A DNA stretch of 64,000 nt from positions 20,898 through 84,897 of the forward strand of contig CAZLZN010000002.1 in the NCBI GenBank assembly GCA_964564035.1. Reading direction: 5' to 3'. Below, piece after piece: positions 7,404 through 52,648 of this stretch. How positions within the stretch are numbered: the first letter of the stretch is position 1; each line of letters begins with the position of its first letter. The notes below the pieces were generated by a model, which saw only the letters and a program-made list of their open reading frames with translations, had not been told where the DNA came from and ran no database searches. The position numbers and the translations under genes were made by a program. This DNA comes from an uncultured Gammaproteobacteria bacterium (GTDB lineage Bacteria > Patescibacteriota > Microgenomatia > Levybacterales > UBA12049).

Positions 7404-8040
7404 ATATAATTTATTTAATTTTTAAAATACTTTTACTTAACCTTTTCTATAATAACAGAAAGTAATCCTTATACTCAAAACAAATATATTCTTTATGTGA
7501 CTAGAGCTTCCGGTATTATTTAAATTATTCACACGAATTGGATGACCCAAAGTCTTTGTACACATATCCAACTTTAAAAATAATTTCAGTATTGTGATTT
7601 AAGCCACGTTAATAAATATAAGTTGCACCTTATTTTAGCTATTTGGAGTACTCGAAATATAGGTTTTTCTTTTCCGCCTGCAGTTGAGCTAACTGCTTTC
7701 TATATTTTGCAATGCTTCTATCAAGTGCGGTTTTAGTCAAAAATCAAACGTATTGGTTATCTCAGCCCACTGAGTTACTAAACGCCTATTTCTATTACCT
7801 GGAGCATTCCTTGTAAATTTAGATTATACCCGTCAGCTATAAGTATTCCACTCCTCTAACTTCCCCAAATATTGAGGTGAATACTTTCCCGGTTCGATGG
7901 TGTGCAGGAACGTCAATTTATTGCTGTTCATATGCTGTTATGTTGCAAATCTTCTTATATATAAAATTACATATCCCAATTTAATATTCCCTATTTATAA
8001 AACCAATCAACATGCGAGGTTAGTTAGTGCAGCTTTACAC

Positions 8041-8066
8041 TGTATAGTTGTCTAGACAACTATACA
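8041..8066. repeat. perfect 26-bp palindrome TGTATAGTTGTCTAGACAACTATACA, 2 nt past the stop of the TrpR-family gene
   Basis: Read directly; the reverse complement is identical. The right part (8047..8067) is a 19/21 direct repeat of 8488..8508. Confidence 0.9.
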
Positions 8067-8068
8067 AC

Positions 8069-8479
8069 TTACCTTCCTACATTTTTTCTCCTAAAGCCCG
8101 AATACACTTTTTTCTTGAACACGAGTTTTGATCCTCCGGTATTTATAAATTTGTTCTTTCCATACTCATTTTCTACCTTTATTCGTCTTGCTTCTATCAT
8201 GTCAAACGCATCCGGATACTTGTCTAAGCTCTTTATTACTGACAAAATAGTATTTTTCCCTACGTTTAATTTTCTGGCTATTTCGTCATAACCAACATTA
8301 TTTTTTATAAGCATCGCAATAATTATGCGTCTGCCGATCTTCATTTTCTCATCAAAAGTCAATAAACTGTTAATTATTTGCTCAACTTGTTCGCCATTTT
8401 TAGCAGCCAGAAATGCATCTCTCAATTTATTAAGCGCGTCATAAACATCGTCCTGATCTAGAAAATTATATCTTTTCAT
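8069..8479 (-). CDS. TrpR-family (TrpR / YerC-YecD-like) DNA-binding protein
   Basis: LLTFDEKMKIGRRIIIAMLIKNNVGYDEIARKLNVGKNTILSVIKSL aligns with E. coli TrpR [49 protein letters not shown]. It carries an extra basic C-terminal tail of about 40 aa. Confidence 0.7.
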   Translation of the reverse strand: MKRYNFLDQDDVYDALNKLRDAFLAAKNGEQVEQIINSLLTFDEKMKIGRRIIIAMLIKNNVGYDEIARKLNVGKNTILSVIKSLDKYPDAFDMIEARRIKVENEYGKNKFINTGGSKLVFKKKVYSGFRRKNVGR

Positions 8480-8487
8480 ATTATTCC

Positions 8488-8508
8488 GTTGTCTAGACTA
8501 CTGTACAA
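8488..8508. promoter_or_regulatory. GTTGTCTAGACTACTGTACAA motif 9 nt upstream of the TrpR-family start codon (candidate auto-operator)
   Basis: 19/21 identical to 8047..8067 in the same orientation. Contains the 8-bp palindrome GTCTAGAC. Confidence 0.45.
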
Positions 8509-8530
8509 ATCATACAAAAAATCACACGAG

Positions 8531-23371: not shown

Positions 23372-24469
23372 TTACATATTCTGTGCCTTATGCCTCATAT
23401 AGTGATCCATGATCACGATTGCCGCCATGGCATCAACGATCGGTACAGCCCGCGGTAAAACGCATGGGTCATGTCTCCCCTTTGCTTCAAGCGTTGTCCC
23501 TTCACCTTTTCTATTTACAGTATTCTGCATTTTTGAAATAGTAGATACAGGTTTTATCGCGACTCTGAAATAAATATCTTCTCCTGTTGTTATGCCTCCC
23601 AAAGTACCGCCCGCGTGATTCGTTTTTAATTTTACTATTTCATTATGTATATAAAATTCATCATTGTGCTGGCTCCCCCTCATTTTAACACCCTCAAAAC
23701 CCGATCCGAATTCAAACCCCTTAACTGCGTTTATCGAAAGCATAGCTTTCCCGAGGTCCGCCGGAATTTTATCAAAAACAGGCTCGCCGAGACCTGCCGG
23801 CACATTTCTGATAACCCCGAGGATTATGCCCCCTATCGAATCGTTATCGGACTTAACCTCTTCAATAAGTTCGATCATTTCATTCGCCTTCGCAGGTTCC
23901 GGACACCTGACGATATTACTCTCGATCATTTCACTCGTAACTGTCTTAAAATCTATATCTGTTTTTATATCCCCGACTTGCTCGACATAACTAAGTATCT
24001 CAATTCCGAGCTTTTCTTTTAGATATTTTTTAGCAATAGCTCCCGCGGCGACCCGCCCCAGCGTTTCTCTCGCTGACGCTCTGCCGCTTCCGCGCCAGTC
24101 ACGGAGTCCATATTTCTTTTCAAAAGTATAATCCGCGTGCCCCGGCCTGTACAAGTCCTTTAGTTCCATATAGTCCTCGGGTCTCGCGTCTTTGTTATAA
24201 GCCATCAGCATTATGGGAGTTCCAGTAGTTTTGCCTTCAAATATTCCCGACAGAATATGTATTTCATCCTGCTCTTTTCTGGGTGTCGTTATGGCGCTTT
24301 GTCCCGGTTTGCGTCTGTCCAGCTCCCGTTGAATATCGTCTTTAGAGATATCAAGCCCCGGCGGACAGCCGTCAACTATGACGCCGACACCTCCTCCGTG
24401 TGATTCCCCGAAGGTTGTAATTTTATATAGTTGTCCAAAACTGTTTCCGGCCATATTACTTATTATCAA
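23372..24469 (-). CDS. aroC: chorismate synthase
   Basis: TFGESHGGGVGVIVDGCPPG, RPGHADYT and GRHDPCV. Confidence 0.92.
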   Translation of the reverse strand: MIISNMAGNSFGQLYKITTFGESHGGGVGVIVDGCPPGLDISKDDIQRELDRRKPGQSAITTPRKEQDEIHILSGIFEGKTTGTPIMLMAYNKDARPEDYMELKDLYRPGHADYTFEKKYGLRDWRGSGRASARETLGRVAAGAIAKKYLKEKLGIEILSYVEQVGDIKTDIDFKTVTSEMIESNIVRCPEPAKANEMIELIEEVKSDNDSIGGIILGVIRNVPAGLGEPVFDKIPADLGKAMLSINAVKGFEFGSGFEGVKMRGSQHNDEFYIHNEIVKLKTNHAGGTLGGITTGEDIYFRVAIKPVSTISKMQNTVNRKGEGTTLEAKGRHDPCVLPRAVPIVDAMAAIVIMDHYMRHKAQNM

Positions 24470-25139
24470 AAATATCAGCTATAGTTTGCAAGTCCTTTTT
24501 AAGAATTTGTCCATCGGCGGTAAGGTTATTTTTATCGTTTGGAGCAAAATTTACATAATTTCCATTTAACATCCCGTAAACTCGTGCGATTTTGCCCTGT
24601 GTCCCCATTCCCGTCACGATAAATTCCAGTTTCTTTTCATTCAATATATGAATCAAGGTCATAAGTCGTATCGCGTCTTCTGCGTTTTTACACTTTGCCG
24701 CGATTTTAACAACTGAAGGGTTGAATTTATTCATAAAATTTATTATCTTTATAAGCTCCTCCTCATCAGGAGTTTCATTATAGTTATGATAAGAAATAAT
24801 TTTCCGGATGTTTATTTTATTGGAATTTAAATATTCGAGTTCCGTTATCTGATCGTTTATATCCAGATCCAAAAGCGAATTTAGATCCTTAATAGATTCA
24901 ATTATTTTTAACTTTAGATCGGATCTCATTTTTGTGCTTTCTAAATTCTTTCTCCGCAACAAAAATATAAAATTCTTATCTTTGTATTTTTTTATCAGTT
25001 CAGGCGCGAAATTTTCTGTCAGATGATCAATATAATCAAGCCAAATTTCATAAAAATCATATTCCGGATTTTTATCAATAAGTTCGGAAACTTCATTAGC
25101 TGATTTCGCAATTAATGGTAAGCAAAATTTAATTTTCAT
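24456..25139 (-). CDS. aroD: 3-dehydroquinate dehydratase, type I
   Basis: ISYHNYNETP, VKIAAK (Schiff-base Lys context) and GMGTQGKIARV. Confidence 0.75.
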   Translation of the reverse strand: MKIKFCLPLIAKSANEVSELIDKNPEYDFYEIWLDYIDHLTENFAPELIKKYKDKNFIFLLRRKNLESTKMRSDLKLKIIESIKDLNSLLDLDINDQITELEYLNSNKINIRKIISYHNYNETPDEEELIKIINFMNKFNPSVVKIAAKCKNAEDAIRLMTLIHILNEKKLEFIVTGMGTQGKIARVYGMLNGNYVNFAPNDKNNLTADGQILKKDLQTIADIFDNK

Positions 25140-25957
25140 AAGCCATTTAAAATATCTCTGAACAAATCCTCGGAAACGTCACGTCCGGTATATAACTTGA
25201 ACTGTTCAATCCCTTGATAAATAAGCATGTCCTGCCCATGAATTACTTTCGCGCCTTTTTTACTTGCCGATTTTAATAATTCGGTTTCAGTGGGCGTATA
25301 AACGCAGTCAAAAACAATTTGATCTTTTCTAATATATTCTGCCGGCAGTATTGATTTATTGCTGTATCCCTGCATGCCAACAGGTGTGGAATTAATAATA
25401 ATATCACAATTTTTTATTTCGCTGATATTTTCAATAGGCATCGCTTCGCCTCCAAAATCTCCGGCTATTTTTTCTGCTTTTTCAAGCGTTCGGTTAAAAA
25501 TCATGAATCTGGTACCGTTTTTATTCATAGCATACGCGCAAGCTCGCGCAGCTCCTCCCGCACCGATTATCCCGGCAGTCTTACCTTCCAATTTTGTTAA
25601 TTTCATAAGCGGCTTTGCGACACCGATGAAATCGGTATTGTATCCTTTTAGTACGCCGTTGTCGTTGACAATCGTATTGACCGCTCCGATCGCTCTCGCG
25701 TCAGGATCAATATGATCCAAATACTTCATAATTTCGACTTTATGCGGTATCGTGCAACTTACTCCCCTTATTCCCATGGCTCTGACCCCTTTTGTGAAAT
25801 CTTCCAGTTTATCAATTCTAACCCGGCTCGCGACATATACAAACTCACTATCCATTCCCATCTTTTCATAAATAGAGTTATATAGCAGAGGTCCTATCGA
25901 ATGCTCGACCGGATCCCCGATTACCATACAGATTTTTGTTTTTGAATTTATTTTCAT
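25136..25957 (-). CDS. aroE: shikimate dehydrogenase
   Basis: GDPVEHSIGPLLYN, NTD and GAGGAARA. Confidence 0.88.
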   Translation of the reverse strand: MKINSKTKICMVIGDPVEHSIGPLLYNSIYEKMGMDSEFVYVASRVRIDKLEDFTKGVRAMGIRGVSCTIPHKVEIMKYLDHIDPDARAIGAVNTIVNDNGVLKGYNTDFIGVAKPLMKLTKLEGKTAGIIGAGGAARACAYAMNKNGTRFMIFNRTLEKAEKIAGDFGGEAMPIENISEIKNCDIIINSTPVGMQGYSNKSILPAEYIRKDQIVFDCVYTPTETELLKSASKKGAKVIHGQDMLIYQGIEQFKLYTGRDVSEDLFRDILNGL

Positions 25958-27750
25958 ATCAATTGTCCTTTGGCCGCGTTTATTATCATATTTACATTTT
26001 CAGTTTCGCTGACATTTTCTGTACTTACTATTATATCCGCGCTCTTTCTATAAATTTCAATTCGTTGATCATGTAAATGCGTTACTTCATCAATTATACT
26101 TGTTTTGTCTGTCAAAGGCGGCCTGTTTTTATCGCCTGATATACGCCCGGCAAGAGTTTCGATACTTGTGTCCAGAAAAACAATGAGTCCGGTTCGTTTC
26201 ATAAGTTTTATGTTTTCCGGATTTAAAATTATTCCTCCGCCGGTCGAAATTATACATCTGCGTTTATCCGATAACTTCCTTAAAACTTTTGATTCAATTT
26301 TTCTAAAATCATCCCATCCGTTTTTTTCCACAAATTCCGAAATAGAACTCCCTATCTCATGAGATATAATTTCATCTGTATCAATAAAATTTTTAGTTAA
26401 TTTTTTAGCAAGCAATCGCCCTATTGCTGTTTTGCCGCTGCCCCTCATACCTATTAGATATATGTTATCAAAAAAAATATTTGTCTTTATTCCTAATTCA
26501 TTCAGTTTATCCCAAAAATCCGGAAAAGTTTTATTTACCACATCCGGGTCATTTATTGTTATTCCCTCAATCTCTGCGCCGGCAACTGCAAATGACATAG
26601 CCATTCTATGATCGCTATAAGTATCTATCTCGGCTCTCACCGGCATGCCGCCTTTTATCTCCAGAGTGTCATCGGTAGAATGAGTCTCAATGTTCATCTT
26701 GGCAAGTTCGTTTTCTACTGCTTTAACCCGTTCTGTTTCTTTTATCCTCAAAGACTGTACGCCTTTCAAGACCGATGTCCCCTTTGCAAACGCGCAAAGT
26801 ACAGCAACAGTTTGGGCTTGATCGGGAAAATCAATCATGTCCCATTCTATTGCTTTTACGCCGCGGCCCTTTATTTCAATTTTATTTTTTCCATATTTCA
26901 TGTTAGACCCCATATATTCCATAATTTTGATAAGCCGACTGTCAGCCTGAGCGGAATTGGGGTTCAGATTTTTCAACACAAAATTTGATTTGGTCAGAGC
27001 CGCGATCGCCAAAAAATAACCCGCGCTGGAATAATCGCCTTCAACAACATATTTTATTCCTACATATTTTTGATTATTTTTTATAATAAACTCATGGTAG
27101 TTATTGTTTTCCGTAACTACACCGAAATTCCTCATAATATCAATTGTCATATCAATATAAGGCTTTGATATCGAAGTATTTGTAGTTGTTATTTTTTTAA
27201 ATCCGCAAAGCGGCGCGCACATAAGCAGAGCAGAAATATATTGACTGCTGACACTGCTGTCCAGAGCTATTTCTGATTTATTAAGTGTTTTATACTTAAT
27301 AAGTAGCGGCGGATAACCTGCTTTATTCATATATTTAATTTCGGCGCCGGCCTGTATGAGTGCGTCCGCGAGTATTTTTATAGGGCGCTTATTCAATCCC
27401 TCATTTCCCTCAAGCACTTTCTCGCCAGGTACGACACATAAAAAAGGAAGCAAAAACCTTATCGTGGTACCTGATAAATTGGCATTTAGGTAATATTTCT
27501 GATCTGTTATATCTTTATATGACCCGTTCACAATTATTTTGTCCGGTGTATAATTGATTTCAATTCCCAGATCCTTCAGGCAGTTCAAAAGCGCGTAAGT
27601 ATCATCTGACAGCAGAGGATTTACGATCTCTACCTTACCCTCGGTCATCGCGGCAATTATAAGAGCGCGGTTTGTGTAACTTTTAGAACCCGGAATATTT
27701 ATTGCCGCCTTTATAGGTCCGTTAACGGGATTTAGTTTTAATATTTTCAT
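25954..27750 (-). CDS. aroA: fused 3-phosphoshikimate 1-carboxyvinyltransferase (EPSP synthase) / shikimate kinase
   Basis: aa 1 to about 424 are EPSP synthase (PGSKSYTNRALIIAA, RIKETERV, DHRMAMSFAVA). aa about 428-598 are shikimate kinase (GMRGSGKT Walker A, DTD, STGGG). Junction near nt 26478. Confidence 0.88.
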   Translation of the reverse strand: MKILKLNPVNGPIKAAINIPGSKSYTNRALIIAAMTEGKVEIVNPLLSDDTYALLNCLKDLGIEINYTPDKIIVNGSYKDITDQKYYLNANLSGTTIRFLLPFLCVVPGEKVLEGNEGLNKRPIKILADALIQAGAEIKYMNKAGYPPLLIKYKTLNKSEIALDSSVSSQYISALLMCAPLCGFKKITTTNTSISKPYIDMTIDIMRNFGVVTENNNYHEFIIKNNQKYVGIKYVVEGDYSSAGYFLAIAALTKSNFVLKNLNPNSAQADSRLIKIMEYMGSNMKYGKNKIEIKGRGVKAIEWDMIDFPDQAQTVAVLCAFAKGTSVLKGVQSLRIKETERVKAVENELAKMNIETHSTDDTLEIKGGMPVRAEIDTYSDHRMAMSFAVAGAEIEGITINDPDVVNKTFPDFWDKLNELGIKTNIFFDNIYLIGMRGSGKTAIGRLLAKKLTKNFIDTDEIISHEIGSSISEFVEKNGWDDFRKIESKVLRKLSDKRRCIISTGGGIILNPENIKLMKRTGLIVFLDTSIETLAGRISGDKNRPPLTDKTSIIDEVTHLHDQRIEIYRKSADIIVSTENVSETENVNMIINAAKGQLI

Positions 27751-27758
27751 GTGAGTAT

Positions 27759-28550
27759 TTATGCAGACCGGATGCTAGATATAAAATTGTTTATATTTTT
27801 GAGTATGTCCTCTTTTTTTGAATTATTTATAATTTCGATTATAGCACTTCCGATTACTACAGCATCCGATATACCTATTAATGCTTTGACATGTTCGCGC
27901 TTGGAAATCCCGAATCCTGCTGCAATCGGCAGATCCGTATATTTTTTTATATTTTCGATTTTATTTTGGATATCCGCGGCAAGCGAATTCTTTGCTCCGG
28001 TAATTCCCTGTCTGGCGGTAAAATAAATAAATCCTCTCGCCTGCTCAATATTTTTGATAATTCTCTCTCTTGTCGAAGAAGGCGAAAGGACTTGAATATT
28101 TGCAATGTTTTGTTCTCTGCAATGTTTATAAAAATGCTCTTCATTTTCTTCGTCGATCGGCATATCCGGTACAATAATCCCGCTGGCTCCCGCGTTTTTT
28201 GCGTCTATACAGAACCTTTCAACTCCGTATTTAAAAATAGTATTATAATACGACATAAAGAGAAGCGGTACTTCTGTAGATTTGGACAATTTCTCCATGA
28301 GCCGGAATGCATCTTTCACTCTTGTGCCTTGTTCAAGCGATTTCTCACAAGCCTTCATAATTGTCGGCCCGTCCGCGATAGGATCGGAAAAAGGGATTTG
28401 AAGTTCTACAAAATCCGCGCCGCCCTTTATCATCTCAAGAACTATTTTCTCAGTCATTTCGAGATCAGGATAACCGATAACCACATGAGTCATTAATCCT
28501 ATCCGTTTTTCGCTTTTAATTAATTCAAATTGTCTATCTATCTTGCTCAT
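27759..28550 (-). CDS. trpA: tryptophan synthase alpha chain
   Basis: ELQIPFSDPIADGPTI and GFGIS. Confidence 0.9.
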   Translation of the reverse strand: MSKIDRQFELIKSEKRIGLMTHVVIGYPDLEMTEKIVLEMIKGGADFVELQIPFSDPIADGPTIMKACEKSLEQGTRVKDAFRLMEKLSKSTEVPLLFMSYYNTIFKYGVERFCIDAKNAGASGIIVPDMPIDEENEEHFYKHCREQNIANIQVLSPSSTRERIIKNIEQARGFIYFTARQGITGAKNSLAADIQNKIENIKKYTDLPIAAGFGISKREHVKALIGISDAVVIGSAIIEIINNSKKEDILKNINNFISSIRSA

Positions 28551-28662
28551 AAATTAAGATCAAAACCTAAAAATCATACAACAAACCCCCGTTTAAAGAT
28601 TAAAAAATACATTTTTGAGCTTTGGGTTAGGATTTGCATTTTGATCTTTGATTTTTGCGTTG

Positions 28663-29874
28663 TCATTTATTTTTTACAAATTGTTTAAGGAATTCATAAA
28701 ATTTTTCATCATTGAATGCTTCCGCTAATATAAACAAATCCTTATCTCCCCTCCCCGATAGATTAATGACCAAAACATCGCTTTTCTTCATTCCCGGAGC
28801 AATTTTTATCGCGTATGCCGCCGCGTGTGCCGATTCAAGTGCCGGAATTATCCCCTCATTTTTCGCGAGAACTTTGACGCCTCTAAGTGCATCCTCGTCA
28901 GTCGCGTTTACAAATTCAACTCTTTTGTTGTCATGAAGAAAGCTCAGCTCGGGGCCTATTCCCGGATAGTCAAGCCCTGCGCTTATACTATGCGTTTTCT
29001 GCAGTTGTCCGTCATCATCCTGTAAAAAATAAGATTTATATCCCTCTATTACACCGACAGTCCCGTTTGGAAACCTTGTTGCACTTTCTCCAATATTTTT
29101 ACCCCTTCCTCCGGCTTCAACTCCAATCAGCATGACGCTTTTATCACTTATAAAATCATAAAAAGCTCCCATCGCATTGCTTCCTCCGCCGACACAGGCA
29201 ATTACCGCGTCGGGCAATTTACCCTCTGCCTCTCTTAACTGAGATTTAATTTCACGGCCCACCACCGATTGAAAATCGCGGTTAATTGTAGGAAATGGGT
29301 GCGGTCCGACAACCGACCCCAGTACATAATGTGTATCATTAACATTTTCGATCCAGTCTTTGATAGCGGCATTGACCGCGTCCTTCAAAGTCTTACTGCC
29401 GAAAGTAACAGGTCTTACTTCCGCTCCGAGCTGTTCCATTATAAATACATTGGGTCTCTGTCTCTTAATATCTTCCTCGCCCATATAAACTGTGCATGAG
29501 AACCCAAGTTTTGCGGCAACCGTCGCGGTCGCGACTCCATGCTGGCCTGCGCCTGTTTCGGCAATAAGTCTTTTTTTACCGATTCTTTTTGCCAGTAGCC
29601 CCTGTCCGATACAGTGAGTAATCTTGTGGGCTCCGGTATGATTCAGGCCTTCATTTTTGAAATAAATTTTTGCGCCGCCTAATTTTTCTGTTAAGTTTTT
29701 AGCAAATACCAGAGGCGTTGGTCTCCCGGCAAAATTATTTAAAAGCGAGTGAAATTCATCATTAAATCCTCTATCTTGTTTTGCGCTTTCATACGCGCCC
29801 TCCAGCTCTTCCAGTGCTGGGATAAGCATTTCAGGCACATATCTACCTCCGTATTTTCCAAAATGTCCGTTCAT
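28663..29874 (-). CDS. trpB: tryptophan synthase beta chain
   Basis: [11 protein letters not shown] (PLP Lys), GGGSNAMG and [10 protein letters not shown]. Confidence 0.93.
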
Positions 29875-31253
29875 AAATCTACTCCTTTTGCATTCATTAT
29901 AAATTTTTTCAATTTTTGCTTGGTCTTTATACCATTTGTTTCAACCCCGCCAGCGATGTCTACGGCATAAGGTTTTATTTTTTTTACAATCTCTGACACA
30001 TTTTCAGGTGTCAAGCCGCCCGCAAAAAAAACATTATACTTCCCGGCTATTTTTTTTGCTTTCTCCAAATCAAACATTTTTCCGCTTCCCTGCTTTATCC
30101 TGTCAAGCAATAAATATTCGCATCCAAAGTCCAAAATCTTATCCGAATCATTGATACTCTTTATTATTTGATTTTTATTTAAAAGTTTTACAAACTCTTT
30201 CGTTTCTTCTCCATGTAATTGTACAAAATCAGGCCGCAGTTTGTCAGTAATTTTATTTATTTCAACAGCGCTCTGATTTTGAAAAATCGCTGCTGTTTTT
30301 ATATTTCTCCCAACTTTTTTAATTATTTTGTCTGCGTCTGCGGGAGTTATATATCTTTTTGATGTTTTTACAAAATTAAATCCGAGTATATCTGCCCCGC
30401 TATTGATAGCGTCTATGGCTTCACTCATTGTTCTTATTCCGCATATTTTGACCTTTGTTTCATTTCGGAATCTCAAAGATAACAAAAAGCGCTCTATGTT
30501 CTCGGTCTTCATCAGGCTTGTGCCGACGAGTACTCCGTCTGCGCCAGAGTCTTTATAACATACGACTTCTTTTTGAGAATTTATTCCTGAAAATGCGAGC
30601 TTAATATATTTCTCCGGAATACTCCTCAGTAATTTCTGAGCGCTTTCTATGTTTATTGTCAAATCCTCCAGATTTCTTGAATTAACTGCGATAATCCTCG
30701 TATTTGTAGCTTTTGCTTTTTGCAAATCTTCAAGATCATTTATTTCAACAACCGGCTCTACTCCGTACTTTCTGCATAGATCAACAAATCGAATAAGCCT
30801 CTCAGTATCCAAAATTTTCGCGATCAGGAGAAGTGCATCCGCGCCGTTATTACTCGACTCAATTATTTGTGATTCATCTATTACGAAATCTTTTTGCAGT
30901 ACCGGCAATTTGACAGCTTTTTTAATTTTTGCGATATACTTAATATCGCCACCGAAAAAAGTTTTATCTGTAATATAAGAGATCGCATCGGCGTCTGATT
31001 GTTCGTAGCGCTTCACGCGTTTTATGATATCGCGCACATTTCCGAGATTGCGGTCGGTAGGAGAGGCAGTTTTTATCTCTGCAATTATGAATATTTTACC
31101 TCTCTCTGTTCGCTCTTGTATACTGCTATAAAATAAACCGGGTTTTTTGCGCGATGTGTTACTTGTTCTCTTTAGATACTTTTTATGTTTAATTTCCTCT
31201 TTCTTAATTTCGAGAACTTTCTCGAGAAAATTATTTTTAGATGTTTGTTTCAT
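29871..31253 (-). CDS. trpC: bifunctional indole-3-glycerol-phosphate synthase / phosphoribosylanthranilate isomerase
   Basis: N-terminal half [11 protein letters not shown]...[11 protein letters not shown] (TrpC). C-terminal half KVKICGIRT...QLHGEE (TrpF). Confidence 0.88.
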
Positions 31254-32247
31254 AAATTAACCTGTTCAGGGCTTTTTTCGCAAATCCCTTATCTATAGAT
31301 TTCTTTGCAAGATCAATCCCTTCACTGATATCTTTTGCTTTGTCTGCGCAAAGCAGAGCAAAAGCGCTATTGATTATGACGGCACTACTCATCACGCTTT
31401 TCTCGCCGTCCAAAATATTCTTAGTAATCTCGGCGTTTACTTTTACGCCTCCTCCCAGCAGTTCTTTTTTATCTATTAGATCAAATCCGTAATCTCTGGG
31501 ATCAAATATATATTCCTTTATTTTATTTGATTTGATATCTAATACATGAGTTTTAGATGATAAACTCACCTCATCAAGTCCGTCCTCACTTGTTATGATC
31601 ATTAGTCTTTCATAGCCCAGCGACAAAGAAGCTTTCGCTAGCTTACGGGCTGTCGCGAGATCCGGCACTCCTATCAGTTGACGTGTCGTTCCCGCGGGAT
31701 TCACAAACGGTCCCAAGTAATTAAAAACCGTAGGAAACCCGAGCTCTTTTCTAACCGTTATCACATTTTTAAGCGCGGAGTGATACAAGGGAGCAAATAA
31801 AAATACCAGTCCGGTTTGGTCAAGTACTCTCTGAGCTTTCTCGGGCGCTATATTAATATGTACGCCCAGTTCCTCAAGGACATCGGCGCTTCCGCATTTA
31901 CTGCTTGCCGATCTGTTTCCATGTTTGGCAACGACAGCACCGGCCCCTGCCGCGACAAACGCTGATGTGGTTGATATATTAAAGGTTCCGCTTTTGTCTC
32001 CGCCGGTTCCGCATAAATCTATAGCACCTTTATTGGATTTAATAGTAATCATATTATCCCGCATCGCCAGTATAAAACCCTTAATCTCCTCAGTGGATGC
32101 GCCTTTTATTTTAAGCGCGGTAAGTATGGCAGATGTCTGCACCTGTGTTATCCGTCCGGCGATAATTTCCTGCAGTAAAAACCCCGCCTCTTCGGCTGTA
32201 ATGTCTTGTAAATTTATAAGACGGTTTATTAACGATTTATATTCCAT
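31237..32247 (-). CDS. trpD: anthranilate phosphoribosyltransferase
   Basis: CGTGGDKSGTFNISTTSAFVAA. Start placed at MEYKSL (ATG 32247), 1 nt after the trpG stop. The longer ORF would overlap trpG. Confidence 0.9.
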   Translation of the reverse strand: MEYKSLINRLINLQDITAEEAGFLLQEIIAGRITQVQTSAILTALKIKGASTEEIKGFILAMRDNMITIKSNKGAIDLCGTGGDKSGTFNISTTSAFVAAGAGAVVAKHGNRSASSKCGSADVLEELGVHINIAPEKAQRVLDQTGLVFLFAPLYHSALKNVITVRKELGFPTVFNYLGPFVNPAGTTRQLIGVPDLATARKLAKASLSLGYERLMIITSEDGLDEVSLSSKTHVLDIKSNKIKEYIFDPRDYGFDLIDKKELLGGGVKVNAEITKNILDGEKSVMSSAVIINSAFALLCADKAKDISEGIDLAKKSIDKGFAKKALNRLIYETNI

Positions 32248-32248
32248 A

Positions 32249-32902
32249 TTAGTGATTATTAAACAAGAAGTTTTCAAGCATTTTTCGCCCCGCGTCAGTC
32301 GCGAAAGATTCCGGATGAAACTGTATGCCTTCAATGGGATACTCTATATGCCTCAACCCCATAATCTCATTATTATCTTTATATATCTTTGATTTTTGAT
32401 CTTTGCTTTTTGATTTTGGATCGGAATTCCTCACCGTCGCAGTTATTTCGAGTTCATTTGGTAAATTGTTGCCTTCAACAATCAAACTATGGTATCTCAT
32501 TACCTCAAGTCCCTGAGGTAAACCTTTAAAAACTCCCCGACCGTCATGGGTTATTATACTGGTCTTGCCGTGCATCGGCTTCCGGGCCCGTACAACCTTG
32601 CCCCCAAAATAATGAGCTATCCCCTGCATCCCTAAGCAAACTCCCAAAACCGGAGTTGTTTTACCGATATCGGTAATTACTTTTGAACAAACACCGAAAT
32701 ATTTCTCGTCCGACGGGTCCCCGGGTCCCGGAGATATTATTATTCTGTCGTAAGCACTAGTCTTGATTTCTTCAATAGATATTTCGTCATTTCTTTTTAC
32801 ATCGAGCAAAAAATCACCGCCGCGCTCTGTCAAAAGTACCCCGGCATATTGATACAAGTTATATGTGAAAGAATCGTAATTATCTATAATAAGTACTTTC
32901 AT
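32249..32902 (-). CDS. trpG: anthranilate synthase component II (glutamine amidotransferase)
   Basis: GVCLGMQ (nucleophile Cys) and IQFHPES. It carries a Lys/Ser-rich insert (DPKSKSKDQKSKIYK). Confidence 0.88.
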   Translation of the reverse strand: MKVLIIDNYDSFTYNLYQYAGVLLTERGGDFLLDVKRNDEISIEEIKTSAYDRIIISPGPGDPSDEKYFGVCSKVITDIGKTTPVLGVCLGMQGIAHYFGGKVVRARKPMHGKTSIITHDGRGVFKGLPQGLEVMRYHSLIVEGNNLPNELEITATVRNSDPKSKSKDQKSKIYKDNNEIMGLRHIEYPIEGIQFHPESFATDAGRKMLENFLFNNH

Positions 32903-34251
32903 ACGTTCAAAATTATTTTCATTGCTTTGGATTTTCTCATTATTTCATCATATTCCCGCTCGGGATCTGAATCATACACTATTCCGCTGCTGGTCTGTGT
33001 ATACGAGTATTCACCGGATATGTATAAGGACCTGAGTGAAAGCGCGAAAGTACAGTCGCCATTGAATCCGAAATGACCTACTCCTCCTCCATAAGGACCT
33101 CGCGCCGCCGGCTCGTTCTCATCGATTATCTTAATCGTCTCGACTTTTGGTGTGCCGCAAACCGTACCCATAGGAAATTGGCTTGCAAGTCCCGAAAACA
33201 TATCATCCTCCGGCCTGATAAGCCCCGAAATCTCACTGGAAATATGCTGAACGTGACTGAATTTCTTAACTGTCATCAAATCCCGGATCTTAACACTCCC
33301 GAATTTCGCTACTTTGCCTATATCATTGCGGTGCAGATCTACAAGCATATTATGCTCCGCGATTTCTTTCGGATCATTAAGCAAAGTTCTTGCAAGCATT
33401 TGATCTTCTTGTTCGTCGCTGCCGCGTCTGATAGTGCCGGCCAATGGTCTCGTCGTCATCTCGCCGTCTCTTAGTGAAAAAAGCAGCTCGGGACTCGTGC
33501 CAAGTATTCTAGTATCACCAAATCTCATATAATAACTAAAAGGTGAAGGATTGACCTCTCTTAATTTTTCATAAATTTTTATCGCGTCTCCTTTGATGTT
33601 ATATTCTGATTTAAAACCGACTTCACACTGAAATGTATTTCCTGCTCTGATCTGATCCTTGACTCTTTTTACTATCTTTTTGTGCTCCGCTTTGGTTAAG
33701 CCGTCTTTTATAAATGTGATATCCGGAAATTCACTGTTTACAGATTTTTTACTTAATATTCCATTAACGGTTTCTATTCTATTTTGGCCGTAATAAAAAT
33801 AAAAAAATTCATTTGTGAGTTTGTCATAGATTATTCCGTCTGTATACACGCCGAATTTAAACATCTCAAATAAATCATGAGTTTTAATTTTGATTTTAGG
33901 TTCAAAATAATTAACAGCATCATAGGATATATAACCGACCAGGCCCCCCGCATAATTCCTGGCAATAGTTCGCTCAGGCATAATATCACGCAACGCCTCA
34001 TAAGGATTACGGTGTTTTATTTCCAAACTTCCGATCCGTAAAATATCATCTTTGGCGGATACAATTTTAACTGGTTCAAATCCGATTATAGAATATCGGG
34101 AAAACTTGCCCTCCTCGCCGAGAGACTCATAAATGAAGCTTGTGTCAAACTCGCGCTCAATTTTCTTGTATAGATCAAAAAAATCTATATCCTGTGCGAA
34201 TTTTAAATAAACCGGTTTTTGTGACAAGTCGATTTTATACATAATCATCAT
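32899..34251 (-). CDS. trpE: anthranilate synthase component I
   Basis: LFSLRDGEMTTRPLAGTIRRG and GPYGGGVGHFGFNGDCTFALSLRS. The N-terminus is MMIMYK; the real start may be the 4th codon (ATG 34242) if the mRNA is leaderless. Confidence 0.9.
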   Translation of the reverse strand: MMIMYKIDLSQKPVYLKFAQDIDFFDLYKKIEREFDTSFIYESLGEEGKFSRYSIIGFEPVKIVSAKDDILRIGSLEIKHRNPYEALRDIMPERTIARNYAGGLVGYISYDAVNYFEPKIKIKTHDLFEMFKFGVYTDGIIYDKLTNEFFYFYYGQNRIETVNGILSKKSVNSEFPDITFIKDGLTKAEHKKIVKRVKDQIRAGNTFQCEVGFKSEYNIKGDAIKIYEKLREVNPSPFSYYMRFGDTRILGTSPELLFSLRDGEMTTRPLAGTIRRGSDEQEDQMLARTLLNDPKEIAEHNMLVDLHRNDIGKVAKFGSVKIRDLMTVKKFSHVQHISSEISGLIRPEDDMFSGLASQFPMGTVCGTPKVETIKIIDENEPAARGPYGGGVGHFGFNGDCTFALSLRSLYISGEYSYTQTSSGIVYDSDPEREYDEIMRKSKAMKIILNV

Positions 34252-34279
34252 TATACTAGTACGCTAGTATATAAGTCAA
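34250..34279 (-). promoter_or_regulatory. trp operon promoter (TTGACT-18-TATAAT) with embedded tandem-CTAG inverted repeat (candidate TrpR operator)
   Basis: The minus strand reads CTTGACT TATATACTAGCGTACTAG TATAAT GATGATT ATG. Inverted repeat TATACTAG-CGTA-CTAGTATA (34252..34271) with CTAG centres 8 bp apart. Confidence 0.5.
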
Positions 34280-34432
34280 GTATGAATTTTGCATTATATT
34301 GCTTTGTTTACTATACCCCCTTGCTTTCAAAATGAAAATTCGTATAATACTGCGAAGCAATCATTTTAAGCTATTTAGTTTGATATGCTGACATAAACAA
34401 TTTTTGAAAGCTACGCAGGCATATAGCAGATT

Positions 34433-34461
34433 TTTACAAAATGATTGCGGAGTGGTATAAA
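34433..34461 (+). promoter_or_regulatory. promoter TTTACA-17-TATAAA for the XRE gene (start codon 8 nt after -10)
   Basis: TTTACA 34433..34438, 17-nt spacer, TATAAA 34456..34461, ATG at 34470. Confidence 0.4.
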
Positions 34462-34469
34462 ATAAACCT

Positions 34470-34679
34470 ATGCAAAAACACATAGTCAGTAACCAGGTCC
34501 AGAAGTTTAGGGAAAAAATTAAAATAACACAGGAAGACCTTGCGAAATCAATAGGGGTAACCAGGCAGACCATAATTGCTATAGAAAAAGGAAACTATAC
34601 CCCGTCCGTGCTTCTGGCTTTAAAAATTGCAAAATTCTTTAACACAACTGTAGAAAAATTGTTTATAATTGAATCATAA
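34470..34679 (+). CDS. XRE-family helix-turn-helix transcriptional regulator
   Basis: 69 aa. ITQEDLAKSIGVTRQTIIAIEKG is a classic Cro/CI-type HTH. Confidence 0.8.
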   Translation: MQKHIVSNQVQKFREKIKITQEDLAKSIGVTRQTIIAIEKGNYTPSVLLALKIAKFFNTTVEKLFIIES

Positions 34680-34680
34680 T

Positions 34681-35034
34681 ATGTACAAAGAAGCCGTAAG
34701 TATTTTCATAATTTTAATTATCGCGATTTTATTTCTAAATCCCGGTCATCTTACAATGCCTGAGACTATGGTCTCTATGATGATTATCGGCATAATTATT
34801 GCGTTCCTGTTTTTTGCCGCTTATTTACTAAACGAAACATCTGCTGATGAAAGAGAAGCACTGCACATCCTAAAAGCAGGCAGAATATCATATCTGTCTG
34901 GAGTAGCGATGCTGATAACTGCAATTATTATCCAGGGTATAGATCACGAAATAGATCACTGGCTGATTATTGTTTTATGCGTAATGCTATTGTCCAAACT
35001 TATCTCCCGCATTTACTCCCGCCTCAAAATGTAA
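34681..35034 (+). CDS. small integral membrane protein (partner of the XRE regulator)
   Basis: 3-4 hydrophobic helices. ATG 34681 is preferred over the listed TTG at 34669. Confidence 0.5.
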   Translation: MYKEAVSIFIILIIAILFLNPGHLTMPETMVSMMIIGIIIAFLFFAAYLLNETSADEREALHILKAGRISYLSGVAMLITAIIIQGIDHEIDHWLIIVLCVMLLSKLISRIYSRLKM

Positions 35035-35099
35035 AGAGTACTTGACATTTATATTTGTTTTGTTATACGATTAATTAAACACACAAAGGAGGTGATAAT

Positions 35100-35699
35100 A
35101 TGAAAAAATCTACTATGATAGCAGGAGCTGTATTGCTTTTAATAGTAATTTCGGCCGGCGCATATTTCTTGTCTCAACAAAACTCGGATAAAGGAGTTAT
35201 GCAGAAGGACGATAATCTTCAGCCGTCGGTGTCATCTGAGGCAGACGGACAATCCGGTTCTATGCAAAAAGATGAAAATACTGAAACAAGCGGCACGGCG
35301 CAGCAAACGGACGATTCTATGATGAAGTCCGATAATAGCATGGGTAAAACCAATACTGCAGATGGTGCCATGATGGCATCCTCATACGTCGAATTTACAC
35401 CAGATGTTTTAGCTGAAACAGCAGGCACAAAGAGAGTATTATTCTTTTATGCCTCCTGGTGCCCGACTTGTATTCCGGCTGACGCGCAGTTTTTGAAAAG
35501 CAGTGACAGGATTCCCGATGGTGTGACCGTAATAAGAGTCAATTATAACGATTCCCAGACGGATGAAGATGAAAAAGCTTTGGCACAAAAGTATGAAGTA
35601 ACTTATCAGCACACATTTGTACAAATCGATGCAAATGGTAAGCAGGTTACAAAATGGAATGGCGGTAAGTTGAATGAATTATTGGCCAATATCAAGTAG
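35100..35699 (+). CDS. membrane-anchored thioredoxin-like protein
   Basis: Strong SD (AAGGAGG), N-terminal TM, Met/Asp/Ser-rich linker, then a thioredoxin fold with WCPTC. Confidence 0.75.
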   Translation: MKKSTMIAGAVLLLIVISAGAYFLSQQNSDKGVMQKDDNLQPSVSSEADGQSGSMQKDENTETSGTAQQTDDSMMKSDNSMGKTNTADGAMMASSYVEFTPDVLAETAGTKRVLFFYASWCPTCIPADAQFLKSSDRIPDGVTVIRVNYNDSQTDEDEKALAQKYEVTYQHTFVQIDANGKQVTKWNGGKLNELLANIK

Positions 35700-35702
35700 T
35701 AT

Positions 35703-37454
35703 ATGATTTTGCTGACACTTTTTGCGTTTTTAGCTGGTATTGTGACTATATTGTCACCTTGCATATTGCCAATACTGCCGATCGTTTTGTCCTCGACCAT
35801 AGGCGGCCAGGGGACGAATAAACGCCGGCCTATTGGCGTATGTTTGGGATTCATTTTTAGTTTCACATTTTTTACGCTGTTTTTATCAACTATAGTAAAC
35901 ATAAGCGGTATTTCGGCTGACTTTATACGTTTATTTTCGGTATTTATTATAGCGCTGTTTGGCGCTTCTCTTTTAATACCGCAGTTTCAGTTGTGGACGG
36001 AAAAACTTTTCTCGGCCTTAACTAAATTAATTCCTCTGAAAAATCAAAACGCCAATTCCAAACATGGTTTTTTCGAAGGTTTTATTATCGGACTTTCAAT
36101 AGGCTTATTATGGACACCCTGCGTAGGGCCCATACTGGCATCAGTTATCACGCTTGCGATCACAGGATCGGTAAATTCATCTGCTGTAGTAATTACACTC
36201 GCCTACGCGCTTGGCACTGCTATACCGATGTTTGCTATTTTGATAGGCGGACAAAAACTGCTTAGAAAAGTTCCGTGGCTTATGGCAAATACTACAAAAA
36301 TTCAAAAAGTTTTTGGGGTAATTATGATCCTAACTGCGGGCGCAATATATTTCAATATAGACAGAAAATTCCAGACGTATATATTACAAACTTTTCCTCA
36401 ATACGGAACCGGACTGACTCAATTTGAAGATAATGACCAAATCAGGAAAGAATTGGAAAAACTAAATATTAATAAGGACAATTCCACATTGGACAATAAA
36501 GATATGATTGGGAAATCAACATCGGATATTCAGCCGCAGGGACCTCTTGCTCCCGAGATAATCCCCGGAGGTCAATGGTTCAATTCTCGGCCTTTGAAAT
36601 TAAGCGAATTAAAAGGCAAAGTTGTCCTGATAGATTTTTGGACTTATTCATGTATAAATTGCCAAAGGACACTGCCTTATTTAAAAAATTGGTATGAAAA
36701 ATATAATCCGGCAGGACTGGTAATTATCGGCGTCCATTCTCCGGAATTTGAATTTGAAAAAAATCCAGGCAATGTTTCAACAGCGATCACGGATTTCGGC
36801 ATCAAATATCCCGTGGTACAAGACAATGAATTTTCTACTTGGCGGGCGTATGAAAATCGTTATTGGCCGGCAAAATATTTTATTGACAAAAACGGAGTTA
36901 TCAGGAAAACGCATATAGGTGAAGGAGCTTATAATGAAAGCGAGAAGTTTATCCAGGAATTACTAAATGAGGCAGTAGATGAACCTGTTTCTTTACAAAT
37001 TGATAACCCCGAATATACCCTTTATTCACGGACACCTGAAACATACCTGGGCTTCGAGCGAATAGCCAACTTCGCATCCCCGGAATTGATCAGAAAAAAT
37101 CAACCTGCCGTCTATACAAAGCCATTAAAACTGGATTCAAATCAGGTAGCTTATGAAGGCAAATGGATTGTATCCGGGGAATATGCCAACCCTCAGGCAG
37201 GGTCTTCACTTCATCTGAACTTTGAATCAAAAGAAGTCTTTCTGGTCATGCGGCCGAAATCAAATATTTCAAAAATCAAAATATATCTGGATAACAAACA
37301 GGAATATTTGGGTGAAGATGCCGTAAGCGGCGTTATCAGTGTGGACAGCCCTGCGCTTTATAAGCTTATCAAGTTGGACGCCCCCGGCCGTCATGAATTG
37401 CGCCTGGAGTTTCTTGACAGCAATACAGAAGTATATGCATTTACCTTCGGTTAA
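35703..37454 (+). CDS. DipZ-like protein: CcdA/DsbD transmembrane electron-transfer domain fused to a thioredoxin-like domain
   Basis: TM domain with LSPCILPILP and WTPCVGPIL. Exported redoxin domain with WTYSCINCQ. Confidence 0.8.
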   Translation: MILLTLFAFLAGIVTILSPCILPILPIVLSSTIGGQGTNKRRPIGVCLGFIFSFTFFTLFLSTIVNISGISADFIRLFSVFIIALFGASLLIPQFQLWTEKLFSALTKLIPLKNQNANSKHGFFEGFIIGLSIGLLWTPCVGPILASVITLAITGSVNSSAVVITLAYALGTAIPMFAILIGGQKLLRKVPWLMANTTKIQKVFGVIMILTAGAIYFNIDRKFQTYILQTFPQYGTGLTQFEDNDQIRKELEKLNINKDNSTLDNKDMIGKSTSDIQPQGPLAPEIIPGGQWFNSRPLKLSELKGKVVLIDFWTYSCINCQRTLPYLKNWYEKYNPAGLVIIGVHSPEFEFEKNPGNVSTAITDFGIKYPVVQDNEFSTWRAYENRYWPAKYFIDKNGVIRKTHIGEGAYNESEKFIQELLNEAVDEPVSLQIDNPEYTLYSRTPETYLGFERIANFASPELIRKNQPAVYTKPLKLDSNQVAYEGKWIVSGEYANPQAGSSLHLNFESKEVFLVMRPKSNISKIKIYLDNKQEYLGEDAVSGVISVDSPALYKLIKLDAPGRHELRLEFLDSNTEVYAFTFG

Positions 37455-51476: not shown

Positions 51477-51737
51477 TTATTTAAAATATAACAATGAAAT
51501 AATTATTCCGAATACCGCGAATAACATATATTCTAGCACAACAGCCGTACTTAATCTATGATGCAGATGCTGATGCGCAATAGCCATAGCTAAATACGCC
51601 GCAGTCATTGTAAATACAACTGCCAATTGCAGTTCTTTGCGGTTGCCTAGCGACATTAAGACTATAACACCGACAGTCTGCACTATTCCTAGCAAAAAAT
51701 AATATTTAAAATGTGCCGGGATATTCTTTTTGTTCAT
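51477..51737 (-). CDS. small integral membrane protein
   Basis: 86 aa, 3 TM, coupled to flanking genes (1-nt gap and 4-nt overlap). Confidence 0.4.
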   Translation of the reverse strand: MNKKNIPAHFKYYFLLGIVQTVGVIVLMSLGNRKELQLAVVFTMTAAYLAMAIAHQHLHHRLSTAVVLEYMLFAVFGIIISLLYFK

Positions 51738-52648
51738 AATATCGCGCCTCGTCCAATTATTAAAATACTAGCAAGAATAAGCGATAAATATATAATATGA
51801 TCGGTGTTATGAGAAAAAGCCCTGGCAATTTTTTTCCGCTCAATTATAATAGCGTCAATTACAAGTACCAGTATAAACAAAATCAGCATAGCATATATAA
51901 AATTTTGTGTAAAATTTTCTTTATTAATAATAGGGTCTTGTTTTATCGAAGCAACACCTTGGTTATTTCTGATATCCTGCTTAACTATAATAGGACTTAT
52001 CTCGCCCCGCGCAATCAAGCTAACGGTAGGAGTTGGAGAAAGATTTAGCACAGCTATTTCTGTTTCTTTATCATCTTCGGCATCTGCATACCTTGTTCCG
52101 AACATTTCTACAACAAGCACGGTATCACTTCCCGTCAGCGTACCGGTCGCTATAGCAAATCCCACATCACTATAATCTTTCGATAACATATTGGCTCTGT
52201 GCGTAGGGCTCTCCATCCAGGCTTTTACAACATCCGGCGCAGTAGAATATCCCCGCGCGAGGTTCTCACCTGCATATAAATATTCATAACCCGAATTCAA
52301 TATAAACGACCACGGCGTTACCCCATCCGGAGCAATATGAGCCCAATAATTTTTAGAAAACATATCTGATGCCTTGTAGGACGCAGCTTGGGAAAGATCG
52401 GAATCCAGCCTCAACTCAGCCAAGCCATTTTCTTTTCTATATTCATTAGTTATCGATAGTAGTTCGGCAGGCGAAATATTCGAAGCAATTCCTAGTACTG
52501 CCGGGAATTTACTCTGAATTGGATTTAGAAGTGAAAATATAAATATTACGCCGGAAATTGCAAGCACTATAGCGTCTGCATGAAGTAGTTTTGCCCTATG
52601 ATTATTTTTTTCATGAGGTACAAATAAGTGCTTCAGAAGTCTTTTCAT
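51734..52648 (-). CDS. CAP (SCP/PR1-like) domain protein with N- and C-terminal TM segments
   Basis: YWAHIAPDG, GENLARG and WMESPTHRANML. Confidence 0.7.
   Translation of the reverse strand: MKRLLKHLFVPHEKNNHRAKLLHADAIVLAISGVIFIFSLLNPIQSKFPAVLGIASNISPAELLSITNEYRKENGLAELRLDSDLSQAASYKASDMFSKNYWAHIAPDGVTPWSFILNSGYEYLYAGENLARGYSTAPDVVKAWMESPTHRANMLSKDYSDVGFAIATGTLTGSDTVLVVEMFGTRYADAEDDKETEIAVLNLSPTPTVSLIARGEISPIIVKQDIRNNQGVASIKQDPIINKENFTQNFIYAMLILFILVLVIDAIIIERKKIARAFSHNTDHIIYLSLILASILIIGRGAIL

Follow-up and report, generated by a model that had tools for sequence, protein, structure and literature searches.

In the 64,000-nucleotide stretch of contig CAZLZN010000002.1 analysed here (the window), which belongs to an uncultured member of the Patescibacteria (Candidate Phyla Radiation, CPR), the tryptophan biosynthesis operon headed by trpE is preceded by a promoter that appears to contain a TrpR-type operator. 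The best explanation overall, to which we assign a probability of roughly 0.6, is that this trpE promoter has a TrpR operator built into it, gives a leaderless start and responds to a canonical TrpR encoded at an unlinked site. On the model of E. coli, the operator would be occupied by a TrpR dimer carrying tryptophan, or by dimers in tandem, which would block RNA polymerase, and without the repressor, transcription would begin at the A of the ATG at 34242, or 1 nt before it, producing a leaderless mRNA. The repressor would be a canonical TrpR of about 85 amino acids (aa) encoded elsewhere in the genome. The promoter module is the one that many related CPR genomes place before an autoregulated canonical trpR, itself located just upstream of trpE; in the clade of the window, it is joined straight to trpE, with both trpR and an attenuator or T-box leader absent.

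Promoter and operator at trpE

Re-reading of the minus strand at 34279..34240 gave cTTGACT-TATATACTAGCGTACTAG-TATAAT-GATGATT-ATG with exact coordinates, confirming the promoter described earlier by a sequence-only reading of this DNA (-35 and -10 hexamers with an 18-nt spacer) and its tandem-CTAG operator, both of which are kept in three relatives. In a consensus scan, this promoter scores 11/12 against a sigma-70-like consensus, which makes it the top match in 33000..36000 and also the top minus-strand match across the whole 13-kb trp-aro block. The 20-bp operator (Table 1) takes up the greater part of the spacer and extends 4 bases into the -10, and its two CTAG cores lie 8 bp apart in the inverted repeat ACTAG-N4-CTAGT. 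CTAG is about 3.5-fold depleted in the window (41 sites versus 143 expected from dinucleotide shuffles), and 41 sites in 64 kb would give only about 0.03 CTAG-N4-CTAG pairs by chance in the whole window; the one occurrence is at the trpE promoter. The complete 20-bp element is single in the window even at 3 mismatches, and no further operator copies were found in the window, in the 10 kb adjoining it on the left or in some 29 kb of contigs from close relatives. Small CTAG clusters are present in the window near 8052-8536, 41694/41703 and 51533-51768.

A search of a large protein database retrieved three close TrpE relatives (L163, L164 and L165, with TrpE identities of 87%, 88% and 82%), which together with the window form the close set, and whose contigs share its synteny of trpE with an XRE-family gene. 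The aligned promoters are CTTGACTTATATACTAGCGTACTAGTATAATGATGATTATG in the window, CTTGACTTACATACTAGCATACTAGTATAATGATTGTTATG in L163, CTTGACTTATATACTAGCATACTAGTATAATGAATA-TATG in L164 and CTTGACTTATGTACTAGTGTACTAGTATAATGATTGTTATG in L165. Across the four aligned genomes, the -35, the -10, the ATG at 34242 and 12/12 positions of the two TACTAG repeats are invariant, against a background of 22/46 invariant columns (48%) in adjacent intergenic DNA and 4/19 (21%) at third codon positions, while the discriminator has 3/7 invariant columns plus a 1-nt insertion or deletion (indel). Promoter spacers are ordinarily under no sequence constraint. Since TACTAG is invariant in such a spacer while the neighbouring bases drift, we regard the element as a binding site, and it is very likely that 34252..34271 is a real operator with predicted binding of a TrpR-type protein. 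Conservation of the inverted repeat upstream of trpE had been proposed as a check on the operator, and the 12 TACTAG positions are indeed kept in all three relatives. Because the operator is conserved and also matches a trpR-linked element in more distant relatives (see below), the earlier proposal of TrpR-type repression stands as the likely control of the trp operon.

The first in-frame ATG of trpE, at 34251..34249, overlaps the -10. In L164, a 1-nt deletion puts this upstream ATG out of frame (ATG AAT ATA TGA) and the downstream ATG is kept, which argues that the true start is at 34242 and not at 34251; gene callers likewise give a 447-aa TrpE for L164, for L165 and for one member of the window's own cluster. 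The start codon follows the -10 after 7 nt in the window and after 6 nt in L164, and the usual spacing from -10 to start would have transcription begin with the A of the ATG or a base adjoining it. Given that the ATG at 34242 lies only 7 nt past the -10, the trpE mRNA is predicted to be leaderless, and no Shine-Dalgarno (SD) motif was found upstream of trpE. With the ATG invariant and the L164 indel pointing the same way, the leaderless start at 34242 suggested by the sequence-only reading is upheld with good confidence, the transcription start being predicted from the -10 geometry.

Leaderless-type starts appear to be common in this genome. SD cores are present at only about 7/67 window genes. 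Of the 30 genes preceded by 40 nt or more of intergenic DNA, 10 show a -10-like hexamer whose end lies 6-9 nt ahead of the start, a 4-5-fold positional enrichment; examples are the starts at 13875, 34470, 44517, 52648 and 58017. A leaderless first gene had been considered unexpected, a view that these counts do not sustain. In addition, the TrpE N-terminus of the window clade, M-(Y/N/K)-(K/R)-I..., is 3 residues shorter than the usual M-K-x-L-P-K-I..., which is consistent with remodelling at the junction between promoter and gene.

Control of trpE in related genomes

In two contig collections, the closest TrpE sequences belong to metagenome-assembled genomes (MAGs) of Patescibacteria, with identities of at most 72%. 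In order to place the trpE promoter among its relatives, we compared 160 more distant trpE loci, 137 of them CPR-like and 23 from Proteobacteria or Opitutales. CTAG-N4-CTAG directly at trpE was found in none of the 160. In many of them, the ACTAG-N4-CTAGT element is located 300-450 bp upstream of trpE, and between the two lies a short gene (81-106 aa) with a helix LG(V/I)G(I/V)ATVTRGS that matches E. coli TrpR (LGAGIATITRGS), the recognition helix being G(I/V)ATVTRGS in the short proteins and GIATITRGS in E. coli. These short upstream proteins have their best score to the TrpR model TIGR01321. A canonical trpR is immediately upstream of trpE in 60/160 loci, and in 31 of these 60, ACTAG-N4-CTAGT is present at the trpR promoter with at most 1 mismatch; some of the remaining trpR-linked loci carry the variant ACTAG-TATA-ATAGT. 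The trpR promoter of L087 is TTGACA-TATACTAGTTTACTAG-TATAAT-AGTATTCAC-ATG (N16 spacer, N9 to the ATG) and that of L088 is TTGACA-TGATACTAGCATACTAG-TATAAT-AGGATTCC-ATG (N17 spacer, N8 to the ATG), and those of L003 and L032 resemble them. The description of the operator as E. coli-like is borne out by the same element at canonical trpR promoters of related loci. Only in the four-genome clade of the window was the module seen to adjoin trpE itself, without a trpR in cis. Judged from these loci, the type of switch is already known and common in related genomes, and the unusual part is the module on trpE without a neighbouring trpR.

Among the 137 CPR-like loci, 71 have a T-box-like leader, 38 have trpR upstream (26 with an operator at ≤1 mismatch), 19 have neither and 9 have too little upstream DNA; the corresponding counts for the 23 Proteobacterial/Opitutales loci are 0, 22, 1 and 0. 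These numbers suggest that TrpR control is widespread in the lineage, and databases already contain the annotation 'trp operon repressor [Patescibacteria group bacterium]'. The earlier remark that TrpR control would be unexpected in such genomes is not supported. No paper on TrpR in Patescibacteria, nor a relevant one on leaderless mRNAs in CPR bacteria, was found in the searchable literature.

The T-box-like CPR leaders contain the canonical AGGUGGUACCGCG box, GGTGG(C/T)ACCGC, together with a terminator (for example L042 2696..2955, L020 2779..2958 and L188 120..200). Those tested score about 24-34 bits against Rfam RF00230, below its gathering score of 93, and would for this reason be missed by standard annotation. 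In the window, no T-box or other known RNA leader was detected with Rfam, at gathering scores or at permissive E-values. A trpL-type attenuator, present in relatives, is also missing from the window, where there is no leader between promoter and trpE.

Several side observations concern these relatives. The trpR-trpE spacers of L002, L015, L022/L125, L049, L055, L057 and L088 hold E. coli-style Trp-codon attenuators, some of which consist of a distinct leader peptide with Trp codons in tandem (for example MKKTVINNWWMNNL* and MNHHKNNQTWWWTVHI*) and a terminator after it. At about 10 loci (L010, L017, L026, L027, L029, L107, L116, L136, L138 and L146), TrpR itself ends in ...(T/S)WWRNLSxxRG*, and the GAGAGG of its final codons is complementary to the CCTCTC arm of the terminator behind it; this WW ending looks like an in-frame trpR-trpL fusion, of which we found no description in the searchable literature. 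Gene orders trpR-trpB2-trpS, with no trpE nearby, and trpR-trpB2-trpE were seen in L176-L181 (P0194 contigs), L094, L030, L100, L114 and L121-L123, and since trpR heads such other units, CPR TrpR would control more than the classical operon. The nearest non-CPR TrpE sequences (56-60% identity) are those of L054-L080, from Psychrobacter, Moraxella, Cellvibrionaceae, SAR116 and Opitutales. In L054-L080, trpR adjoins trpE upstream, with CTAG-N4-CTAG operators, a possible sign of transfer of the trpR-trpE module between CPR bacteria and other phyla.

Candidate repressors and rival explanations

As to the identity of the repressor, we lean slightly towards a canonical TrpR encoded elsewhere, as predicted from the operator, because the latter is under selection and keeps the canonical consensus. 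A trpR unlinked to trpE has precedent in the trpR-trpB2-trpS units of other CPR contigs. Several points nevertheless weigh against the proposed scheme as a whole. No canonical trpR was found in the window, in the 10 kb past its left end or in the approximately 29 kb of close-relative contigs, the roughly 74 kb covered for the window species being perhaps 6-10% of a typical CPR genome by our estimate, and the trans-acting repressor for the trpE operator is therefore a putative one. The transcription start of trpE is placed by geometry alone, the 18-nt spacer is longer than the 16-17 nt of the relatives' trpR promoters, and a T-box leader is present in the nearest outgroup, whose TrpE is 73% identical. 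Because of this T-box leader, the arrangement may have arisen either through deletion of trpR and attenuator or through replacement of a T-box by a promoter/operator module; a trpR deletion inferred from the nearest outgroup was dropped on the same grounds. The TrpR of the P0194 contigs was considered as a same-species repressor and rejected, as it comes from unrelated samples.

The sequence-only reading had pointed instead to the 136-aa TrpR-family protein encoded at 8069..8479 as the repressor binding the operator. This gene is the only TrpR-fold gene in the approximately 74 kb of the window species, and the sole window match, weak and at about 34% identity, in tblastn searches with 13 canonical TrpRs. 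Its product exceeds the gathering score of Pfam PF01371 (43.7 bits against 27), shows homology to the canonical TrpR of CPR bacteria (28% identity at an hhalign probability of 97.7%) and keeps the equivalents of Thr44, Arg54 and Thr81. It co-occurs with the operator in at least 2 genomes (the window, and L162 + L163 from sample ERR12350060), and its family is small and lineage-restricted, with about 30 representatives at E<=1e-10, for which reason the objection that the paralog is too widespread to be trp-specific was rejected. On the other hand, the protein falls below the NCBIfam cut-offs of both TrpR (TIGR01321, 27.6 bits versus 67.25) and YerC/YecD (TIGR02531, 30.2 bits versus 42.2). Its recognition helix, GKNTILSV(I), differs from the canonical G(I/V)ATVTRGS and varies within the family, and the equivalents of Arg84 and Gly85, residues that bind corepressor as well as DNA in the E. 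coli repressor, are missing. The top sequence and fold matches are the YerC/YecD-type structures 3KOR, 3FRW and 3G1C, of unknown function (TM-score normalised to target 0.6-0.8), and there is an extra basic C-terminal tail of about 45 aa.

Moreover, the 136-aa gene is flanked on both sides (8482..8508 and 8040..8068) by near-identical conserved elements that, like the trp operator, are centred on CTAG. In the window clade the element is TTGTCTAGACAA, with the general form CGT-N3-CTAGAC-N-ACG, and of the two copies in the window, the downstream one (TGTATAGTTGTCTAGACAACTATACA) forms a perfect palindrome of 26 bp. The element has a single CTAG and flanks unlike those of the trp operator, is kept in four genomes including L162, L182 and L184 at 56-88% protein identity, and may be the family's own binding site or an RNA element. 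The recJ/cca/yqeY/secDF neighbourhood of the gene is kept at 56-64% identity, and the trp operator retains the canonical TrpR consensus with no drift towards the paralog's element. Taken together, these features make it unlikely that the YerC/YecD-like paralog is the trp repressor as had been suggested. The more specific scenario, in which canonical trpR was lost in a small CPR clade and the 136-aa paralog took over the canonical trp operator, is a shade less likely still.

The remaining alternatives dispense with any TrpR-family protein. If trpR had been lost, the operator might be an orphan site, unbound and now part of a strong constitutive promoter; no canonical trpR is present in the DNA searched, and the right arm of the palindrome, which overlaps the -10, would be conserved for promoter function in any case. 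However, 10/12 of the invariant TACTAG positions lie in the spacer and are unchanged across four genomes whose neutral sites have heavily diverged, and we consider this reading improbable. Another candidate is the divergent XRE-family regulator (34470..34679), which could bind the palindrome and control trpE: XRE dimers typically bind palindromes, and the gene and its membrane-protein partner are found beside trpE in 4/4 clade genomes and in 0/160 other loci. Yet the same operator accompanies canonical TrpR in dozens of loci without this XRE gene, a promoter-like region belonging to the XRE gene itself lies further upstream, and in the window a 146-bp insertion separates the XRE start codon from the shared intergenic region with the operator unchanged, which leaves this regulator a very improbable one. 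The palindrome might also have arisen by chance, the promoter being rich in AT, or it might form an RNA hairpin or terminator; by simple arithmetic, 64 kb should contain about one 8+8 inverted repeat with a given fixed spacing. Against chance stand the depletion of CTAG with its 0.03 expected pairs, the position exactly on the trpE core promoter, the conservation and the match to TrpR operators elsewhere; against a hairpin or terminator, the site lies upstream of the predicted transcription start and no T-run follows. The chance palindrome is effectively refuted by the conservation data, and this whole class of explanation has hardly any probability left. Finally, an archaeal reading of the promoter (TATA box and B recognition element, BRE) was rejected, as the genes and their relatives are bacterial (Patescibacteria).

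Gene context, significance and comparison with known systems

The trp genes are followed, tightly packed 3' of trpA, by genes of the shikimate pathway (Table 1). Behind trpA and into the aro genes, the gaps are 8 nt or overlaps, and the consensus scan detected no strong internal intergenic promoter in the trp-aro block; trpE-G-D-(CF)-B-A-aroA/K-E-D-C is thus probably one transcription unit of about 11 kb and 10 genes (23372..34242), judging from this arrangement. With the aro genes sharing the trp promoter, chorismate supply may also come under tryptophan control. Neither 3-deoxy-D-arabino-heptulosonate 7-phosphate (DAHP) synthase nor dehydroquinate synthase is among the annotated window genes.

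Table 1. Features of the trpE promoter and of the trp-aro block in the window
Feature	Coordinates	Strand	Basis or remark
-35 hexamer TTGACT	34274..34279	-	consensus scan; invariant in 3 relatives
Spacer, 18 nt	34273..34256	-	between -35 and -10
Predicted TrpR-type operator, 20-bp inverted repeat TATACTAG-CGTA-CTAGTATA	34252..34271	.	sequence; uniqueness; relatives' trpR promoters
Operator repeat 1, TACTAG	34264..34269	-	6/6 positions invariant in 4 genomes
Operator repeat 2, TACTAG	34256..34261	-	abuts -10; 8 bp from repeat 1; 6/6 invariant in 4 genomes
-10 hexamer TATAAT	34250..34255	-	consensus scan; invariant in relatives
Discriminator GATGATT, 7 nt	34243..34249	-	variable among relatives; 6 nt in L164
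trpE start codon ATG, predicted transcription start at A	34240..34242	-	ATG invariant; L164 indel
trpE, anthranilate synthase component I, 447 aa from revised start	32899..34242	-	annotation
trpG	32249..32902	-	annotation
trpD, 336-aa gene call	31237..32247	-	annotation
trpC-trpF fusion	29871..31253	-	annotation
trpB	28663..29874	-	annotation
trpA	27759..28550	-	annotation
aroA-aroK fusion, aroE, aroD, aroC	23372..27750	-	tightly packed 3' of trpA

On the other side of trpE are the divergent XRE-family helix-turn-helix (HTH) gene and a small membrane-protein gene. The XRE-trpE intergenic region measures 73-81 bp in the relatives and 227 bp in the window (from the ATG at 34242), where it includes a 146-bp segment (34312..34457) that is found in the window species, L161 and L187 and missing from the three close relatives. 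This segment contains the 11-bp inverted repeat GCAATCATTTT/AAAATGATTGC and splits the relatives' putative leaderless XRE promoter, TTGCAT-N17-TAAAAT-N6-ATG. Its interpretation as a repeated miniature inverted-repeat transposable element (MITE) was rejected, as it is single-copy in all DNA compared.

Members of the CPR are uncultured and are held to be without most biosynthetic pathways, and their gene regulation is poorly known. The present comparison suggests that the CPR lineages that retain trp genes use textbook devices, namely TrpR operators, Trp-codon attenuators and T-box leaders, and that these have been swapped frequently between close relatives. The near-identity of the window operator to the E. 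coli consensus would make it directly testable in E. coli with E. coli TrpR, and thus one of the few regulatory elements of an uncultured lineage that are open to experiment, while the locus as a whole would be a clean natural example of a repressor-controlled leaderless mRNA. Were the 136-aa paralog to have taken over the operator, its family would gain a first assigned function and DNA target.

That paralog shares its fold with the YerC/YecD proteins (TIGR02531), from which it differs in scoring below their cut-off, in its additional basic tail and in belonging to a small, CPR-restricted family. The tRNA-Trp-sensing T-box leaders of other CPR genomes occupy the same site, upstream of orthologous trpE genes, and serve the same Trp-responsive purpose; they act, however, through an RNA leader and a terminator, whereas the window contains no T-box, nor the space that one would need.

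The closest characterised counterpart of the trpE promoter is that of the E. coli trpEDCBA operon, with the operator TGTACTAGTTAACTAGTAC, an unlinked trpR and structures of the repressor-operator complex (PDB 1TRO, 1TRR). In both operators, an inverted repeat overlapping the -10 carries a pair of CTAG cores at a distance of 8 bp, and the arms match almost exactly (GTACTAG-N4-CTAGTAC in E. coli, ATACTAG-N4-CTAGTAT in the window); in E. coli the repressor gene is not adjacent to the operon, and none lies beside the operon of the window. In contrast to E. coli, with its long trpL leader, the window has no leader peptide or attenuator and a predicted leaderless mRNA, its operon additionally carries aroA/K-E-D-C, and its cognate repressor was not found in the approximately 74 kb searched.

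Among CPR bacteria, the nearest arrangement is that of the autoregulated trpR-(trpL)-trpE operons in MAGs of Levy-, Roizman-, Davies- and Kaiserbacteria and similar groups, which we did not find in the searchable literature and whose TrpE is 60-72% identical to that of the window. They have the same -35/operator/-10 order and an ATG 6-9 nt past the -10, but there the gene driven by the module is trpR, with a Trp-codon attenuator between it and trpE, whereas in the window the module would drive trpE directly.

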